This document shows positions 8,054 through 48,256 of a stretch of 64,000 bases of DNA, piece after piece. The stretch spans positions 13,688-77,687 of the forward strand of contig JBAZUO010000004.1 in NCBI GenBank assembly GCA_041661345.1, read 5' to 3'. This stretch comes from Candidatus Omnitrophota bacterium. GTDB lineage: Bacteria; Omnitrophota; Gorgyraeia; 2-01-FULL-45-10. A program made the position numbers and the translations under genes. The notes beneath the pieces were generated by a model. The model made no database searches and was not told the DNA's origin. It was given only the letters and a program-made list of their open reading frames with translations. Position 1 is the first letter of the stretch. Every line of letters starts with the position of its first letter.

Positions 8054-8243
8054 TTATGGTAATTTCTTTACCCATTTTTCTAACAATAAGGATACTATCA
8101 GGCTATATAACCTCTAATATGTGTATTTTACTAATCACAAAAAACTTGTCAACAAATTTTAAGACCGCGAAATGGCACTTGTTCAAAATAATAAAATATG
8201 GAAAAAGGAAGAGCTACATTAAATAGAAACTACGCTTCTCTTT

Positions 8244-8338
8244 AAAAACGTTTGGCCGCGAGACCTGCTATAGTCTACATGTTGGCAAGGCGAAGGGCAA
8301 AAGCAGACTACGCTTTTGCCCGAAGCCCGAACGTTGTT
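8244..8338 (-). repeat. tRNA-trailer structured element, copy A. It abuts the CCA of tRNA-Glu.
   Basis: aaacgtttggccgc...gcccgaagcccgaacgtt. Its termini are inverted-complementary, with a G.U-compatible change relative to the other copies. The copy is mosaic: its 5' half matches copy D and its 3' half matches copy E. Confidence 0.6.
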
Positions 8339-8416: not shown

Positions 8417-8447
8417 ACCGAAAAAAATTACGCGAACAGAATTTGCT

Positions 8448-8512
8448 CCTTTTCCAATATATTTTGGAAAAGGAATATTAAGGAAAACCTTTTTAGAAAA
8501 GGTTTTCCTTAA
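8448..8512. repeat. Two adjacent perfect hairpins: ccttttccaatatattttggaaaagg, and ttaaggaaaacctttttagaaaaggttttccttaa (the conserved element-associated hairpin).
   Basis: Direct inspection. The second hairpin is homologous to the hairpins at 9526, 47010 and 47981, with compensatory changes. Confidence 0.6.
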
Positions 8513-8629
8513 AACGATTTGGCCGCAAGGCCGCTGTTGCCAGCGTGTCGGCGGGCGAAGGGCGAAAAACAATACAACATTTTTCGGCCCGAAGCCCAAA
8601 TCGCTAAATGGTGCGCGGGACAGGACTTG
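8511..8629 (-). repeat. tRNA-trailer structured element copy B (8511-8608), followed by a 21-nt duplicate of the 3' end of tRNA-Leu (8609-8629).
   Basis: Element: aaaacgatttggccgc...ggcccgaagcccaaatcgctaaa. The segment tggtgcgcgggacaggacttg is identical to 8746-8766, which is the real tRNA-Leu 3' end. Confidence 0.6.
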
Positions 8630-8745
8630 GTCCTTCGGTTCGCAGTGCTCACCTTCGGACCGGCCAATTTGCTGTCGGGCATAGCCCTTTTCTTCCTATT
8701 CGTCAGCGCAAATTGGCTTCAAGTCCATATCCGGACTGACTAAAA

Positions 8746-8840: not shown

Positions 8841-9002
8841 TCAATTAGCTTCTCGTAGTTTACGGCGCGCCAACTTCTGCTGTTTCGATAATACCATATC
8901 CGCAAGCTCGTTCATTAATCTAATGCCTTCCAGTTTTTTTTCTGCGGATATTTTAACACCTCTTATAATCTTTTCTTTTCGCGGCTCCCACCCAGAAATC
9001 AT
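8841..9002 (-). CDS. Hypothetical 53-aa basic helical protein, translationally coupled (ATGA overlap) to the upstream nucleotidyltransferase-like gene.
   Basis: Not in the ORF track. Hand translation gives MISGWEPRKEKIIRGVKISAEKKLEGIRLMNELADMVLSKQQKLARRKLREAN. It ends 10 nt before the tRNA-Leu 5' end. Confidence 0.35.
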   Translation of the reverse strand: MISGWEPRKEKIIRGVKISAEKKLEGIRLMNELADMVLSKQQKLARRKLREAN

Positions 9003-9490
9003 ATTACCTTTCTAACTAATTTTAGCTCTTCAATATCTTTTAAATCTTTATCACGCCCTGATGCTCTTTTCATTTTTATAAAATCTTTCGGCGATAAAAT
9101 TATAAGGTTTAGGCCTTTTATTTTAACTTTTAGGGCGTTTTTTATAGCGTTCTTAAAATTAACCGGCGAATCAATAACTATATCAACTTCTTCATAACTT
9201 TTTTCACCCTTGTAAAAATTAAACGCCTTCATATTTTTATTTTCAATCCAATCTTTGCGTGTTTTCGCATCTGCTATCATTGCAGGATCTACCGGTTGTT
9301 TGACATGATACCCGGCCTTCCTCAATATCTTAACTATCTTTCCAAGATTCTCATCCGTCATTTCAACCAGGATGTCCATGTCGAGCGTATTTCTCTGTCC
9401 TCCAAGGAGATTAAATGCCATGCCTCCCACGAGGACATATTTTACCTTCTTGCTCTGAAATTCTTTAAGTATCTCTTCGTACAGTATCAC
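8999..9490 (-). CDS. Minimal nucleotidyltransferase-fold (Pol-beta superfamily, MNT-like) protein.
   Basis: VGGMAFNLLGGQRNTLDMDILV fits the G[GS]-x9-13-D-x-[DE] nucleotidyltransferase motif. The gene lies between tRNA-Leu and tRNA-Gln. Confidence 0.45.
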   Translation of the reverse strand: MILYEEILKEFQSKKVKYVLVGGMAFNLLGGQRNTLDMDILVEMTDENLGKIVKILRKAGYHVKQPVDPAMIADAKTRKDWIENKNMKAFNFYKGEKSYEEVDIVIDSPVNFKNAIKNALKVKIKGLNLIILSPKDFIKMKRASGRDKDLKDIEELKLVRKVI

Positions 9491-9525: not shown

Positions 9526-9654
9526 TTAAGAAAAACCCTTTCATAAAAGGTTTTTCTTAAACAAATTTGGGCGCTAGCCCCACTGGCTATTGCTTTGTCG
9601 GTGGGCCGAAGTCAAAAACCAGACAACAGTTTTTGGCGGAGGCCAAATTTGCAT
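9526..9654 (-). repeat. Conserved hairpin (9526-9560, ttaagaaaaaccctttcataaaaggtttttcttaa) plus tRNA-trailer element copy C (9559-9654), abutting the tRNA-Gln CCA.
   Basis: aaacaaatttgggcgc...ggcggaggccaaatttgcattgg. The terminal stem caaatttgg/ccaaatttg covaries relative to copies B and D (cgatttgg/ccaaatcg). Confidence 0.6.
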
Positions 9655-9728
9655 TGGTTGCCCAGCTAGGATTCGAACCTAGACTAAATGGTTCAGAGCC
9701 ATTCGTGCTACCATTACACCACCGGGCA
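9655..9728 (-). tRNA. tRNA-Gln, anticodon CUG.
   Basis: Reverse complement gives TGCCCGGTGGTGTAATGGTAGCACGAATGGCTCTGAACCATTTAGTCTAGGTTCGAATCCTAGCTGGGCAACCA. It has the U1:A72 pair typical of tRNA-Gln and the anticodon loop CTCTGAA. It sits immediately downstream of glnS. Confidence 0.85.
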
Positions 9729-9778
9729 ATGATCACTCTTACGTTACCCGTAAATCTTATACTAAAACCGGACTTTTT

Positions 9779-11464
9779 TCAACGCTTTCTTTGCTCGAGC
9801 TTCACCCACTCATCTTTCAGCGTCACTGTCCTGTTAAAAATACGCTTCCCGTTTTTTAAAGCTATAGGATCGAGATAAAAATAGCCCAGGCGCTCAAATT
9901 GATAGCGGCTTCCGGGCAAGGCTCCTTTTAGCGACGGCTCAAGCTTGCAGGACGTTAGGATTTCGAGAGATTTCGGATTAAGGTTGGAGCGAAAATCCTT
10001 GCCTTCGAGTGCATCGTCAGGATCGCGCTTAGTGAATAGTAGATCATAGAGCCGGACCTCCGCGTCGATAGCATGGCTTGCCGAAACCCAGTGGAGCGTA
10101 GCCTTCACTTTGCGGCCATCAGAAGCATCTCCTCCCCGCGTAGCAGGATCATATATGCATCGGATCTCGGTAATCTCGCCCGTCTTGGGGTCCTTGATGA
10201 CTTCCGTACATTTCACGAAATACGCATATCTCAGCCTTACTTCTTTCCCTGGAGATAACCGGAAAAATTTTGGCGGGGGAACTTCTCTAAAATCATCCCG
10301 TTCGATATATATCTCCCGGCCAAACGACACTTTGCGGGTTCCGGCGGCCGGGTCTTCTGGATTATTGATGGCGTCGAGCTCTTCCGTTTTACCTTCCGGA
10401 TAATTCGTTATGACAAGTTTAATGGGCCTTAGGACCGCCATTACACGCGGTGCGGTCTTATTCAATTCTTCCCGTATCGCATTTTCGAGCACGGCGATCT
10501 CTATTATGGAATCCATCTTCGAAACGCCGATCCCATCGCAGAATTGGCGGATCGCGTTCGGCGTGTAGCCACGCCGCCTGAAACCGGATATAGTCGGCAT
10601 GCGCGGGTCATCCCATCCGTCTACCGATTTCTCCGTAACAAGCTGAAGCAATTTACGTTTGCTTAAAACCGTATGACTTAAATTAAGCCTCGCAAATTCG
10701 ATCTGCTGCGGATGGTAGGCTTTTAATGTATCAAGTATCCAATCATAGAGCGGACGGTTATTCTCAAATTCAAGCGTACAGATGGAGTGCGTTATCCCTT
10801 CGATAGAATCGGAAATACAGTGCGCAAAATCATACATAGGATAGATGCACCATTTGTCGCCGGTGCGATGATGGTGCTCGCGCTTTATGCGATATAGGAC
10901 AGGGTCGCGCATGATAATATGCGGATCCGCCATATCGATCTTGGCGCGCAAAGTTTTGCTGCCGTCGGGAAACTCGCCCTTCCTCATGCGCGCAAAGAGG
11001 TCGATATTCTCATCGACCGAACGGCCACGATATGGACTATCCTTGCCGGGTTGGGTAAGCGTTCCACGGTATTCCCGCATCTCATCGATATTCAGGTCGC
11101 AGACATACGCTTTGCCTAATTTTATAAGCTGGACGGCACATTCATAAAGCCTTTCGAAATAGTCCGACGCGTAGAAGAGACGATCTCCCCAGTCGAATCC
11201 GAGCCAGCGGACATCTTCGACGATCGAGTCGACATATTCGCTCTCTTCCTTTGCGGGATTCGTATCGTCCATTCGCAGGTTGCACAGGCCTTTGTAATCG
11301 CGGGCGATGCCGAAACTGATACAGATAGCTTTGGCGTGGCCGATATGCAGATAACCGTTCGGCTCGGGCGGAAAACGCGTGTGAACCTTCCCCTTGAACC
11401 TGCCTGTCTTAAGGTGTTCGTCGATTATCTCTCTTATGAAATTTTGATCTTGAGTTTTTTCCAT
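9779..11464 (-). CDS. glnS: Glutaminyl-tRNA synthetase.
   Basis: [42 protein letters not shown] is near-identical to the GlnRS HIGH region. Confidence 0.9.
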
Positions 11465-40889: not shown

Positions 40890-41119
40890 AAAAAATCCCC
40901 GCGAGTGCCGTGTCAAGCTGAATTATCTTGATCCTGTTATTTACAGGTGGGTGCCCTCTTATAGATACCGAGGTATCCGTAAAGTTAGGCTCCCTAGTTT
41001 AGTGCTAATGGCTCAAGATTCTCCATTCGAATCACGCGCACCGCAGGGAATTTATCCTTCTAAAAAAAGTATATCACAAATTCCATGGAATGCAATCCTG
41101 CTTCGCAGGACAGGCTTTC

Positions 41120-45256: not shown

Positions 45257-46972
45257 TTATTTTATCTTTTCGTCGATTTCTTTTTTCAACATCTGCACAA
45301 ACTCTTCTATAGTTTTCTTGCCCATATCGCCCTGAGTCTTCGACCTTACAGACAAGGTCCCTTCGGCAGCTTCTTTCTCGCCCAGCACTATCATGTACGG
45401 GACCTTATCCATCTCGGCGTCCCTTATCTTCTTCTGCAAACGCTCATTACGCGAATCAAGGCTGACCCTGATCTCCAGGGCCGTCAGGATCGACTCTACC
45501 TTCTTCGCGTACTGAAAGGCCTTCTCCGATACCGGTATTATAGCACATTGGGTCGGCGCAAGCCACATGGGCATCGCCCCGGCAAAATGTTCGATGAGGG
45601 CGCCCATGAAGCGTTCGAGCGAGCCCAGTATTACCCTGTGAAGCATTATCGGGCGCTGTTTATTGCCTGTCTCGTCTATATAAGCGAGATCGAATCTCTC
45701 GGGAAGCGCAAAATCGCACTGGATAGTGGCACATTGCCACTCGCGCTTCAATGCGTCCTTCAGTTTAATATCTATCTTCGGCCCGTAGAAGGCGCCGTCG
45801 CCTTCGTTGATCGTGTAATTTAAATATTTTCTCTTCAATGCGCCGACCAGGGCACGCTCGGCCGCGGCCCAATCCGCGTCATTTCCGATCGATTTTTCGG
45901 GACGGGTCGATATCTCGACGGAGAAATCTTCGAATCCGAATACGTTCAATGTATCGATTACGAAATCTATGACCTTTATGATCTCGTCTTCCACCTGGTC
46001 CCTTAAACAGAATATATGCGCATCGTCCTGGGTGAACCCTCTTACGCGCAGGAGCCCGTGGAGAACCCCGGATTTCTCATTTCTGTAGACGGTGCCTAAT
46101 TCAAAATATCTGATCGGAAGGTCACGGTAACTTCTCGTCTTCGATTTATACACGAGAATATGGCCGGGGCAGTTCATAGGTTTTATCGCGTACTCTTGCC
46201 CCTCTATTTTGAATATGTACATGTTCTCTTTGTAATAATCGTAGTGACCCGACGTCATCCATATGTCGCTCTTCATTATGTGGGGGCCCAGAACAAGCTC
46301 ATACCCCCTCTTCAGGTGTTCCTTTCTTATGTAGTTTTCGATTATGCTCCTCAACATCGCCCCTTTCGGGTGATATAAGACAAGCCCCGGCCCAACCTCT
46401 TCGTTGAAGCTGAAATATTCCAGCTGTTTACCGAGCAGCCTGTGATCGCGCCTCTTGGCCTCTTCGATCATGGCGAGATATGCCTTTAAATCTTTTTCGG
46501 TCTCGAACGCGGTCCCATATATTCTCTGAAGCATCGGATTCGTCTCGATGCCGTGCCAATACGCCCCCGCGATCGAAAGAAGTTTGAACGCCTTTATCTT
46601 ACCGGTAGATTCGATATGCGGCCCGCGGCATAGATCCGTAAAATCCCCGTCTTTGTAGATCGTGACCGTATCTTCCGGGATCCTTTCTATCAATTCCAAT
46701 TTATACTTCTCGCCCATATTTTTGAAAAGCCTGATGGCGTCCTCTTTTTTCAGCTCCGTCCTCTCGAAGGTGCAATTCTTTTTTATGATCTCACGCATCT
46801 TAGCTTCGATCTTCTCGAGGTCTTCGGGTGTAAAAGGCTCTTCTTTGTCAAAATCATAATAAAAGCCGTCCTCGATCGATGGGCCTATGCCCAGGCGTAT
46901 CTTTGGCCACAGGCTTTTAACCGCCTGCGCCATCACGTGCGATGTCGAATGTCTTAGTACCGATAAATCCAT
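45257..46972 (-). CDS. thrS: Threonyl-tRNA synthetase (lacks the N-terminal TGS domain).
   Basis: Class II synthetase core; 571 aa. Confidence 0.9.
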   Translation of the reverse strand: MDLSVLRHSTSHVMAQAVKSLWPKIRLGIGPSIEDGFYYDFDKEEPFTPEDLEKIEAKMREIIKKNCTFERTELKKEDAIRLFKNMGEKYKLELIERIPEDTVTIYKDGDFTDLCRGPHIESTGKIKAFKLLSIAGAYWHGIETNPMLQRIYGTAFETEKDLKAYLAMIEEAKRRDHRLLGKQLEYFSFNEEVGPGLVLYHPKGAMLRSIIENYIRKEHLKRGYELVLGPHIMKSDIWMTSGHYDYYKENMYIFKIEGQEYAIKPMNCPGHILVYKSKTRSYRDLPIRYFELGTVYRNEKSGVLHGLLRVRGFTQDDAHIFCLRDQVEDEIIKVIDFVIDTLNVFGFEDFSVEISTRPEKSIGNDADWAAAERALVGALKRKYLNYTINEGDGAFYGPKIDIKLKDALKREWQCATIQCDFALPERFDLAYIDETGNKQRPIMLHRVILGSLERFMGALIEHFAGAMPMWLAPTQCAIIPVSEKAFQYAKKVESILTALEIRVSLDSRNERLQKKIRDAEMDKVPYMIVLGEKEAAEGTLSVRSKTQGDMGKKTIEEFVQMLKKEIDEKIK

Positions 46973-47009
46973 AATCTAACCTTCCTACCTTCCTTAAAGG
47001 AAAGGATCC

Positions 47010-47135
47010 TTGAAGGGAAACCTTGGTTTCCCTTCAAAACGATTTGGTCGCAAGACCTGCTGTTGTTTGACAGCCGACAGGGCGGAGGGCAAAAAACAAC
47101 ACAACATTTTTTGGCCCGAAGCCCAAATCGTTTAG
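47010..47135 (-). repeat. Conserved hairpin (47010-47037, ttgaagggaaaccttggtttcccttcaa) plus tRNA-trailer element copy D (47036-47135), abutting the tRNA-Leu(UAA) CCA.
   Basis: aaaacgatttggtcgcaagacctgctg...ttttttggcccgaagcccaaatcgtttag. The 11-bp terminal complementarity is perfect. Confidence 0.6.
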
Positions 47136-47221
47136 TGGTGGGCAAGGAGGGAGTCGAACCCTCATGGCCTTGCGGCCAGTGACTTTTAAGGCCACCGTGT
47201 ATGCCTTTCCACCACTTGCCC
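47136..47221 (-). tRNA. tRNA-Leu, anticodon UAA, with a long variable arm. Continuous; no intron.
   Basis: Reverse complement gives GGGCAAGTGGTGGAAAGGCATACACGGTGGCCTTAAAAGTCACTGGCCGCAAGGCCATGAGGGTTCGACTCCCTCCTTGCCCACCA. The anticodon stem is GTGGC/GTCAC with loop CTTAAAA. Confidence 0.85.
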
Positions 47222-47231
47222 GAAAATTATT

Positions 47232-47945
47232 TTAAGCACTCACACAACAAACTGTTTTACTTTTGCTCCAGCCTTTATATGAATCAAGACATTGCCGAGC
47301 TAATTTTATTTTCCTATCTAATCCTAAGCAATTTTTGTAATAACACTGTCTAGCAATTTCTTTTGCTGCCATCTTCCCGTATTTTAAAATCCATTGTGTT
47401 TCGGATTCTTTATGAACCCTGCCGCTAACATGTAGAAAGCATTCCGTTACATAATTTAACCATTTTATAAAAACTCCAGATCCTGAATAGATTCGTAAAT
47501 TCCACTGTTCCTTTTTATTAGTAGGGTGAAGCCATCGCCGGATACATCCGTCACCATCGATCAATCCTCTCAAAAAATCAACATAATATCTACGAGAAAC
47601 GTTTAGAGCGCCTATTGTTAACGACTTGTGTGGCCTAAGGCCAATTAACATTAGAAGATTGTAGAAATTCTTGTTACCAATTTGTATGCGACAGGCGCGT
47701 TGTTTTCTTGCGCCATATTTACTGCCTATCTTATTGCCTATCCCGGTTGCCACTTTAATCTTCTCGAGAAAAGCATATTCTTTAGCTGTTATATCAATAT
47801 GTCGTCCGTCCGAAGACAAGCATCCGTCGCTTGTAATCAGTCCAACAAGATACCAAAGATTTGATCCTGTAATGTTTAGATCTTTTCGTTTACGAGGCAT
47901 ATGCTTTCTTGCGTCTGCCAATTCCGCCATCCCGGCCATCCGCAA
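47232..47945 (-). CDS. Free-standing double-motif LAGLIDADG homing endonuclease.
   Basis: Two LAGLIDADG-like motifs: WYLVGLITSDGCLS and VDFLRGLIDGDGCI. The gene ends 10 nt upstream of tRNA-Leu(UAA). TTG or internal ATG start. Confidence 0.7.
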   Translation of the reverse strand: MRMAGMAELADARKHMPRKRKDLNITGSNLWYLVGLITSDGCLSSDGRHIDITAKEYAFLEKIKVATGIGNKIGSKYGARKQRACRIQIGNKNFYNLLMLIGLRPHKSLTIGALNVSRRYYVDFLRGLIDGDGCIRRWLHPTNKKEQWNLRIYSGSGVFIKWLNYVTECFLHVSGRVHKESETQWILKYGKMAAKEIARQCYYKNCLGLDRKIKLARQCLDSYKGWSKSKTVCCVSA

Positions 47946-47980
47946 ATCTTAATCATCCTTCCTTTTAAGGAAGAGATATA

Positions 47981-48102
47981 TTAAAGAGAAACTACGTTTC
48001 TCTTTAAACAAATTTGGGCGCGAGCCCCGTCGTTGCTTTACGCATTGGCGGGCCGAAGCCAAAAAGCAGACTACACTTTTTGGCGGAGGCCAAATTTGTG
48101 TA
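47981..48102 (-). repeat. Conserved hairpin (47981-48007, ttaaagagaaactacgtttctctttaa) plus tRNA-trailer element copy E (48007-48102), abutting the tRNA-Val CCA.
   Basis: aaacaaatttgggcgcgagcccc...ggcgggccgaagcc...ttttggcggaggccaaatttgtgta. In minus-strand sense it contains a GGCUUCGGCC tetraloop hairpin. Confidence 0.6.
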
Positions 48103-48179
48103 TGGTGGACGCGACAGGACTCGAACCTGTGACCCCTACCATGTCAAGGTAGTGCTCTAACCAACTGAGCTACGCGTCC
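48103..48179 (-). tRNA. tRNA-Val, anticodon GAC.
   Basis: Reverse complement gives GGACGCGTAGCTCAGTTGGTTAGAGCACTACCTTGACATGGTAGGGGTCACAGGTTCGAGTCCTGTCGCGTCCACCA. Confidence 0.85.
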
Positions 48180-48181
48180 CT

Positions 48182-48256
48182 TGGAAGCGTGGGCGAGAAT
48201 TGAACTCGCGTATAGGAGTTTTGCAGACTCCTGCCTTACCGCTTGGCTACCACGCC
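48182..48256 (-). tRNA. tRNA-Cys, anticodon GCA.
   Basis: Reverse complement gives GGCGTGGTAGCCAAGCGGTAAGGCAGGAGTCTGCAAAACTCCTATACGCGAGTTCAATTCTCGCCCACGCTTCCA. A 2-nt spacer separates it from tRNA-Val. Confidence 0.85.

Follow-up and report, generated by a model that had tools for sequence, protein, structure and literature searches.

Transfer RNA (tRNA) genes of Omnitrophota carry, in their 3' trailers, a structured module that is real, strongly supported and specific to this position, and that is without an Rfam family. The module was studied in a stretch of 64,000 nucleotides (nt), called the window below, from contig JBAZUO010000004.1 of a Candidatus Omnitrophota bacterium (assembly GCA_041661345.1). 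Its core is an element of ~95 nt whose two ends pair with each other. In the window, the element lies on the minus strand and follows the encoded CCA end of a tRNA after a short A/U-rich linker. The module may, as the preferred but tentative reading, serve as a cis-acting RNA boundary between the tRNA and the next gene.

The window contains six tRNAs according to ARAGORN, all on the minus strand, and all five tRNA transcription units (5/5) end in the element. These five copies, named A to E, are the only ones in the window, and each has the orientation of its tRNA. A strict pattern derived from the copies matches the minus strand only, at 8251-8317, 8518-8584, 9566-9633, 47043-47111 and 48013-48080, and its chance expectation over 100 shuffles is 0. 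The same five copies were returned by an unfiltered covariance-model search of the window, with 100 bits for copy D, 90 bits for copy E and 83-90 bits for copies A, B and C. There is no sixth copy; the next best score on the sense strand is 17.5 bits. The original prediction held that D and E share their position and architecture with A-C, and both the pattern and the model bear this out by placing the same family at both loci. The strings quoted there are also found, gcaagacctgctg in D and aaaaagcagactacacttttt in E, with counterparts in A. Its coordinates agree within 1-3 nt, but what it named the 5' and 3' halves is reversed relative to the tRNA, the elements being read on the minus strand. 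The copies, with the boundaries given by the covariance model, and the neighbouring tRNAs of the D and E loci are as follows.

48182-48256, minus strand: tRNA-Cys, 2 nt upstream of tRNA-Val(GAC) (ARAGORN)
48103-48179, minus strand: tRNA-Val(GAC), the last tRNA of its unit, with encoded CCA (ARAGORN)
48006-48099, minus strand: element copy E, which folds as a four-way junction and starts 3 nt behind the CCA of tRNA-Val(GAC)
47136-47221, minus strand: tRNA-Leu(UAA), divergent beta-type (ARAGORN)
47036-47132, minus strand: element copy D, 3-5 nt after the CCA of tRNA-Leu(UAA)
9559-9652, minus strand: element copy C, behind tRNA-Gln; its hairpin H1 at 9526-9560
8511-8605, minus strand: element copy B, behind a duplicated 3' end of tRNA-Leu(GAG); hairpins H1 at 8476-8514 and H2 at 8447-8474
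8244-8336, minus strand: element copy A, behind tRNA-Glu; its H1 at 8219-8245

The fold rests on the alignment of 19 distinct copies, out of 21 full copies found, to the model. Four helices, P1 to P4, meet in a junction that has no unpaired bases. P1 comprises 8-9 base pairs (bp). P2 has 3 bp at its base, then a 3x3 internal loop made up of U and C, then ~13 bp with a bulged C and four invariant A-U pairs, and it ends in a GU-rich loop. P3 has a 4-bp base and a variable top, in which two copies carry a 20-nt insertion, and P4 has 3 bp and a UNGC loop. In copy E, P1 is formed by ACAAAUUUG and CAAAUUUGU, and it is accompanied by a long P2, by P3 and by a P4 with the loop UCGC. Among the 19 copies, 97.9% of the cells are paired, and compensatory changes on both sides are seen in 17 of the 32 pairs. 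None of 500 shuffles equals the observed values, and slid partners pair in only 38-58% of cases. The pairing at the junction itself is fixed by two copies from other loci (loci outside the window are numbered with the prefix L), L016 and L003a, which have U-A for G-C at columns 9/118 and 55/107. Since these columns covary as 9-118 and 55-107, the alternative junction, in which 9 would pair with 55 and 107 with 118, is ruled out. A kissing interaction between the P2 loop and P3 was also considered and rejected; by eye it fits A, B, C and D, but it fails in E, L007, L008 and L009. Several parts of the element are conserved beyond the needs of pairing, namely the P2 loop (UGUWGUNYUG), the four A-U pairs, the U and C of the internal loop and the P4 loop. 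Identity among the copies in the window is ~40-95% per segment. These copies are evidently old, and it is the fold that was kept rather than the sequence.

The distribution of the family was examined in one genome per species for 185,579 species, and metagenome and viral contigs were scanned as well. The genome scan gave six matches, four of which are true copies; all four belong to Omnitrophota and each adjoins a tRNA. The pattern matches in Chlorobiota and Pirellulales are due to chance, and one of them lies inside the coding region of thrS. All matches in the metagenomes (10/10) are true copies and most stand directly behind a tRNA. The exceptions are one copy behind a duplicated tRNA 3' end, one behind a further insert (L014) and one cut by the end of its contig. 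Every true match in genomes and metagenomes thus adjoins a tRNA or a tRNA 3' end, and the viral contigs scanned hold no copy of the element. All 21 full copies begin 3-6 nt after a CCA and have the orientation of the tRNA, L014 with an extra 95-nt insert after the duplicated CCA. In the scans made, the family seems to be confined to Omnitrophota, a group of uncultured, very small bacteria.

Searches against known RNA families gave no match to the element. At the gathering score of Rfam 15, only the tRNAs and a 6S RNA pass in the whole window. At E<=10, three models alone match any large part of an element. An antisense model from H. pylori reaches 44.5 of the 59 bits needed, and it also covers the hairpins H1 and H2 and part of tRNA-Val. 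The much weaker matches to tmRNA_permuted (17.9 of 47 bits) and SpF41 (19.4 of 52 bits) both extend into the adjacent tRNA. ARAGORN and RF00005 report only the six true tRNAs, with which the element shares just the four-helix topology. In the Omnitrophota genomics paper PMC10066038, RNA motifs are annotated via Rfam only, and a term search of it finds the element nowhere.

Every copy is followed by a hairpin, H1, of 12-17 bp (UUAAGGrrAACC...GGUUyyCCUUAA), which also displays compensatory variation. That element and flanking hairpin form one module, as had been proposed at the outset, agrees with the regular arrangement of the copies, each of which begins 3-6 nt behind a CCA and has a hairpin of its own on the other side. 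Behind H1 lies a pyrimidine tract whose sequence repeats that of the 3' arm of H1 in the same copy. The longest string shared by arm and tract has a mean length of 5.7 nt within copies versus 4.9 nt when tracts are swapped, and 0 of 2000 permutations reach 5.7. Often, a purine stretch that resembles a Shine-Dalgarno sequence pairs with the tract, and the two form the palindrome H2. A promoter inside the module was rejected, as the sequences, when read, show no -35/-10 arrangement and the conserved UUAA after H1 is the end of its stem. The corresponding features of modules D and E are listed here.

47981-48007, minus strand: H1 of module E, UUAAAGAGAAAC-GUA-GUUUCUCUUUAA
47957-47975, minus strand: H2 of module E, the pyrimidine/purine palindrome CUCUUCCUUAAAAGGAAGG
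47010-47037, minus strand: H1 of module D, UUGAAGGGAAACC-AA-GGUUUCCCUUCAA
46988-47005, minus strand: H2 of module D, the palindrome CCUUUCCUUUAAGGAAGG
46980-46986, minus strand: Shine-Dalgarno sequence AGGAAGG of thrS, 7 nt before the ATG at 46972

The modules sit at gene boundaries within operons, in keeping with the earlier suggestion of a boundary. The thrS gene starts 38 nt beyond H1 of module D, an open reading frame (ORF) for a nucleotidyltransferase starts 35 nt beyond H1 of module C, and module B is followed by tRNA-Glu. Only after copy A is there a promoter-like site, a strong one at 8152-8125. The order tRNA-Leu(UAA)-element-H1-H2-thrS-infC-rpmI-rplT-pheST recurs at L011 (ThrS 81% identical) and at L018 (94%), and the element of L011 has clearly diverged from copy D in sequence. 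Because thrS begins only 38 nt after H1, which leaves no room for a promoter, the module is expected to be transcribed through, within an operon that joins tRNA and mRNA. Judged by this layout, the module must be co-transcribed with its tRNA and with the downstream gene.

The second palindrome had been predicted to supply the Shine-Dalgarno sequence of the next gene at both loci. For thrS this is right only in part. The functional AGGAAGG of the window is a second copy just downstream of 46988-47005; it is conserved in L011 and L018, and in L011 the palindrome's own arm serves as Shine-Dalgarno sequence. For the LAGLIDADG gene behind module E, the idea fails, as its ATG at 47900 is 56 nt beyond the palindrome and a 29-nt stub of a tRNA-Leu gene lies between them.

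Among the copies in the window, B groups consistently with D, and C with E, in P1, in P4 and in both the base and the apex of P2. Copy A represents a third subtype. Over P1, P3 and the base and apex of P2 it comes closest to L008, a copy from another genome that stands behind tRNA-Val(UAC); in the 10-nt P4, the window copies B, D and E are equally close to it, at 0.8. As the nearest relative of A is mostly L008, its likeness to D and E reflects subtype traits, not an exchange between loci. The original prediction, which described A as a mosaic of D and E in a family that has recombined, is therefore weak with regard to A; recombination within the family is real nonetheless. A homoplasy test of the PHI type, based on site order, gave p=0.03 at one window size and was not significant at two others; 61% of the informative site pairs are incompatible. 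A clear case of recombination is found at L014. Its copy (179-296) and that of L012 (42-159) are identical in alignment columns 1-111 bar one substitution, including the 20-nt insertion in P3. Beyond column 111, L014 switches subtype, and its P1 has three unpaired positions and one G-U pair. L014 is a true chimera. In L005b, a further clear case, the P2 arm is exactly that of D, and P1 and P3 are of the A/L008 type.

How the module could act as an RNA boundary can be outlined as follows. It would be transcribed together with the tRNA and the downstream gene. An endonuclease could then cut in the short linker, at or near the CCA, and so free the tRNA. The downstream RNA would be left with no more than ~5 unpaired nt before a very stable closed fold, and this fold might protect it from RNases that act only on a free 5' end. 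A closed RNA start of this kind blocks 5'-end-dependent decay by RNase E or RNase J. For the next gene, the ribosome-binding site would then be provided by the pyrimidine tract together with H2, and copies of the module would be reshuffled among tRNA loci by recombination. Points in favour of this reading are the presence of the element behind all five tRNA units of the window, the covarying folds of element and H1, the expected read-through into thrS, and the closed trailers of other families that occupy the same place in related genomes.

Several observations weigh against the RNA boundary, and they favour a second explanation, in which the module would be selfish DNA. As an element without a transposase of its own, or as a site of recombination, it would insert or be copied specifically at tRNA 3' ends and be recognised as folded single-stranded or cruciform DNA, in the manner of integron attC sites or REP elements, and the host would simply tolerate its transcription. 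The helices are almost purely Watson-Crick and have no strand bias. The antisense strand folds slightly better than the sense strand (-39.6 versus -37.5 kcal/mol), and 7 G-U pairs stand against 5 A-C mismatches in 541 cells, two apical pairs excluded. The fold is not assignable to one strand from G-U pairs or folding energy, as is expected of a palindrome that acts at the DNA level. Close relatives also differ in the presence of the element at orthologous tRNAs, as is seen from a sample of loci that were anchored on thrS and not selected for the element. In L018 the element follows only tRNA-Leu, and tRNA-Cys and tRNA-Val have an unrelated trailer of ~80 nt, present twice. L021 has the element after tRNA-Val and not after tRNA-Leu, and L019, L020 and L022-L024 are without it and have other trailers instead. 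Turnover of the element between relatives is, on this evidence, fast. Moreover, copies B, L003b, L005b and L013 are each immediately preceded by a duplicated tRNA 3' end, and L016 has a 24-nt repeat at its junctions; duplications of tRNA 3' ends and of parts of the module beside the copies point to DNA insertion or recombination. The chimeric and re-assorted copies fit the same explanation, as do other families of inserts (X, described below, and inserts in D-loops and T-loops) that target the same tRNA genes. Other findings speak against selfish DNA. P1 does form a terminal inverted repeat of 8-9 bp, as in miniature inverted-repeat transposable elements, but it is flanked by no target-site duplication; the flanks are CCA-N3-6 on one side and UU plus H1 on the other, and they contain no direct repeat. 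The copies are not near-identical and dispersed either. With their ~40-95% identity per segment, those within one genome are highly diverged, which shows no recent amplification, and all of those in the window stand behind tRNAs. The element was never found away from tRNAs, and no viral contig matches it. A Pfam search of the five ORFs beside the copies found no Y1 transposase, and no transposase or integrase lies near the copies in the window. Selfish DNA is thus a possible explanation, nearly as likely as the RNA boundary, and the two are not mutually exclusive. It is unlikely that the trailer element, X and the duplicated or interrupted tRNA pieces are together one undescribed mobile system that targets the tRNA genes of Omnitrophota via folded single-stranded DNA or a guide matched to the T-arm.

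The remaining explanations treat the module as RNA with a different task. A small RNA of ~100-140 nt, made of the element with or without H1 and cut from the tRNA precursor, might act in trans by binding a protein or as a sponge. The positions conserved beyond the pairing requirement would suit such a role, and several copies per genome would provide a high dose. Nevertheless, L018 and L021 have not preserved the apical loop, sister lineages do not have the family, and sites complementary to the P2 loop show no enrichment in the window (4 matches versus 1.55 expected, 2 of the 4 within elements), so that a trans-acting RNA appears rather improbable. Still less can be said for a transcription terminator or attenuator of the tRNA units, formed by the element and H1. 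A lenient scan marks H1 of modules B, C and E as terminator-like, and the strong promoter-like site after copy A would agree with a unit that ends there. However, H1 has only 3-4 G-C pairs among its 12-16 and is followed by UAUUCC or UGUUCC without a U run; the G+C-rich hairpin with a direct U run at the end of a unit that defines an intrinsic terminator is not what is found. Hairpins of the H1 type occur in the window only beside elements, and the classical terminators elsewhere in the window look different. In three genomes, the essential thrS follows the module too closely to have its own promoter, and with read-through into thrS required in all three, H1 cannot be an efficient terminator. 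It would be most surprising if the four-way junction were a new self-cleaving ribozyme that trims the tRNA trailer. Its position suits 3' processing, and the junction with its conserved internal loop is loosely reminiscent of the four-way forms of the hairpin and twister-sister ribozymes. Yet there are very few conserved unpaired nt and no unpaired bases in the junction, and even at E<=10 no known self-cleaving ribozyme (hairpin, twister-sister, hatchet, HDV-like or hammerhead) matches the element.

Some known systems resemble the module in part. In E. coli, the 3' external transcribed spacer (3'ETS) of leuZ and the rtT RNA of the tyrT operon lie behind the last tRNA of their unit and are released by tRNA processing. 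They are single-locus sequences that end at a terminator, and we know of no multi-copy family with a shared fold among them. The element is similar to these RNAs in that it is a structured segment of the 3' trailer, directly behind the last tRNA. It differs in that one and the same covarying four-way junction recurs behind many different tRNAs, and in that transcription is expected to continue through it into protein genes. REP/BIME, ERIC, Correia and BOX sequences occupy scattered intergenic sites and are able to influence the processing and stability of mRNA. Like the module, they are multi-copy, palindromic and intergenic, are built of sub-modules, are reshuffled and are transcribed within operons. 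Unlike them, the element stands only 3-6 nt after the CCA of a tRNA, in one orientation, with a junction of four helices and no associated transposase seen. REP/BIME sequences in particular are imperfect palindromes of 20-40 nt with a conserved 5' tetranucleotide and a RAYT transposase, and a 95-nt four-helix junction is not of this kind. The attC sites of integrons share a diverse sequence, a conserved and nearly pure Watson-Crick fold and a place at the boundaries of gene cassettes. They are, however, single imperfect hairpins with extrahelical bases and R/L boxes beside an integrase platform, and none of these features is seen for the element. The mascRNA of MALAT1 is likewise a cloverleaf-shaped fold directly after an RNA that needs a 3' end. 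The element, in contrast, is not scored by tRNA or mascRNA models, and its loops and arm lengths are not tRNA-like.

The tRNAs of Omnitrophota lie in operons with essential genes such as thrS. If the module acts as RNA, it could account for the separation and stabilisation of tRNA and mRNA in these bacteria, and it would add to the catalogues of RNA motifs a well-supported family whose covariation is as strong as that of curated families. If it acts at the DNA level, the tRNA 3' ends of Omnitrophota would be a hotspot for several families of small inserts and would make site-specific mobility guided by structure accessible to study. In both cases, Omnitrophota genomes can be annotated with the covariance model as it stands.

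In related genomes, the trailers that take the place of the element come from at least two further families, of which one starts with GUUUUGCC...GGCAAAAC and another with UCYURCUUCGC. Those of L018 and L019 fold closed and begin directly after the CCA, and the two trailers of L020 fold no better than shuffled sequence. It is apparently the position and the closed architecture that are shared, while the sequence family changes with the lineage. Other trailers are located as follows.

L018: 8664-8742 and 8820-8899
L019: 9260-9345 and 9518-9610
L020: 9298-9420 and 9890-9985
L022: 3764-3830
L014: 298-391

Between modules D and E, the window contains a homing-endonuclease gene and the remnant of a second tRNA-Leu gene.

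47232-47900, minus strand: LAGLIDADG homing-endonuclease gene, 222 amino acids from the ATG at 47900
47908-47936, minus strand: 29-nt stub from the 5' end of an alpha-type tRNA-Leu(UAA), the native form, with the same sequence as in the intact tRNA of L011 and L018

The endonuclease has more than 500 homologs, the top-ranked of which have 219-222 amino acids and come from Omnitrophota wherever their source is named. The homologs cover 92% of an ORF of 237 amino acids, and these lengths and this coverage indicate that translation starts at the ATG at 47900. The beta-type tRNA-Leu(UAA) follows 10 nt after the stop codon. At L022-L024, in three other genomes of Omnitrophota, the endonuclease gene and, within 7-19 nt, a beta-type tRNA-Leu(UAA) are likewise found upstream of thrS. 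Where the endonuclease gene is missing, L011, L018 and L020 have the alpha-type tRNA-Leu and L019 has the beta-type. Endonuclease and beta-type tRNA are evidently a conserved cassette, and it looks as if the homing endonuclease replaced the native tRNA gene with its own allele, a form of homing without an intron. The replacement in the window resembles that by SegB in the tRNA gene cluster of phage T4 (PMC2330249). The cassette was also considered as the carrier of the trailer element; this is ruled out by L022-L024, which have the cassette without the element.

A further module, X, is located between the intact tRNA-Leu(GAG) and copy B, and it recurs at other loci.

8609-8745, minus strand: X module with a 21-nt duplicate of the tRNA-Leu(GAG) 3' end (8609-8629)
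L003: 6680-6808
L014: 392-530
L020: 9550-9677
L009: 690-790
L012: 340-440

X has the core GAAGCC(N)AAWTT...GGCYGG and a side hairpin with GAA loops, and its six copies stand behind six different tRNAs. The 5' closing strand always consists of 2-5 nt of the T-stem of the adjacent tRNA, followed by the reverse complement of its T-loop. The 3' closing strand duplicates the T-loop and the 3' half of the T-stem, and in four cases it extends to the CCA, so that 20-21 nt are duplicated. No Rfam family matches X.

Rearranged tRNA pieces are seen at other loci as well. At L016 (300-345, minus strand), a 24-nt direct repeat, GCGTCCACCACTGAACGATTTTGC, comprises the 3' end of tRNA-Val, the linker and the first bases of P1; it occurs again after H2 and brackets the module like an att-type or target duplication. 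At L013 (1700-1870, minus strand), a pseudo-copy of tRNA-Val lies upstream of the intact tRNA-Val. Two structured inserts split it, one of ~55 nt in the D-loop (after AGTT) and one of ~70 nt in the T-loop (after GGTT). The same 17-nt tRNA-Val stub as in L013 is present at L021 (8717-8745), where it is joined to TCCGCCAAA. At L018 (15965-16483, minus strand), a gene for a Y1 transposase of the IS200 type is inserted after pheT. A link between this gene and the element was rejected, its flanks being unrelated to the trailer or to X.

Three further observations concern the genes around the modules. A 6S RNA gene (40892-41052, minus strand, 80 bits) is found directly after pheT, at the end of the same co-directional string of genes. 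Between module C and tRNA-Leu(GAG), at 8870-9490 on the minus strand, the nucleotidyltransferase ORF, which belongs to DUF6036, and a small overlapping ORF form a toxin-antitoxin-like pair, and this cassette is another small cargo directly behind a trailer module. Finally, a gene for a class I tRNA synthetase of the Glu/Gln type (9655-11464, minus strand, 561 amino acids) lies 50 nt upstream of tRNA-Gln, so that the enzyme adjoins its possible cognate tRNA.

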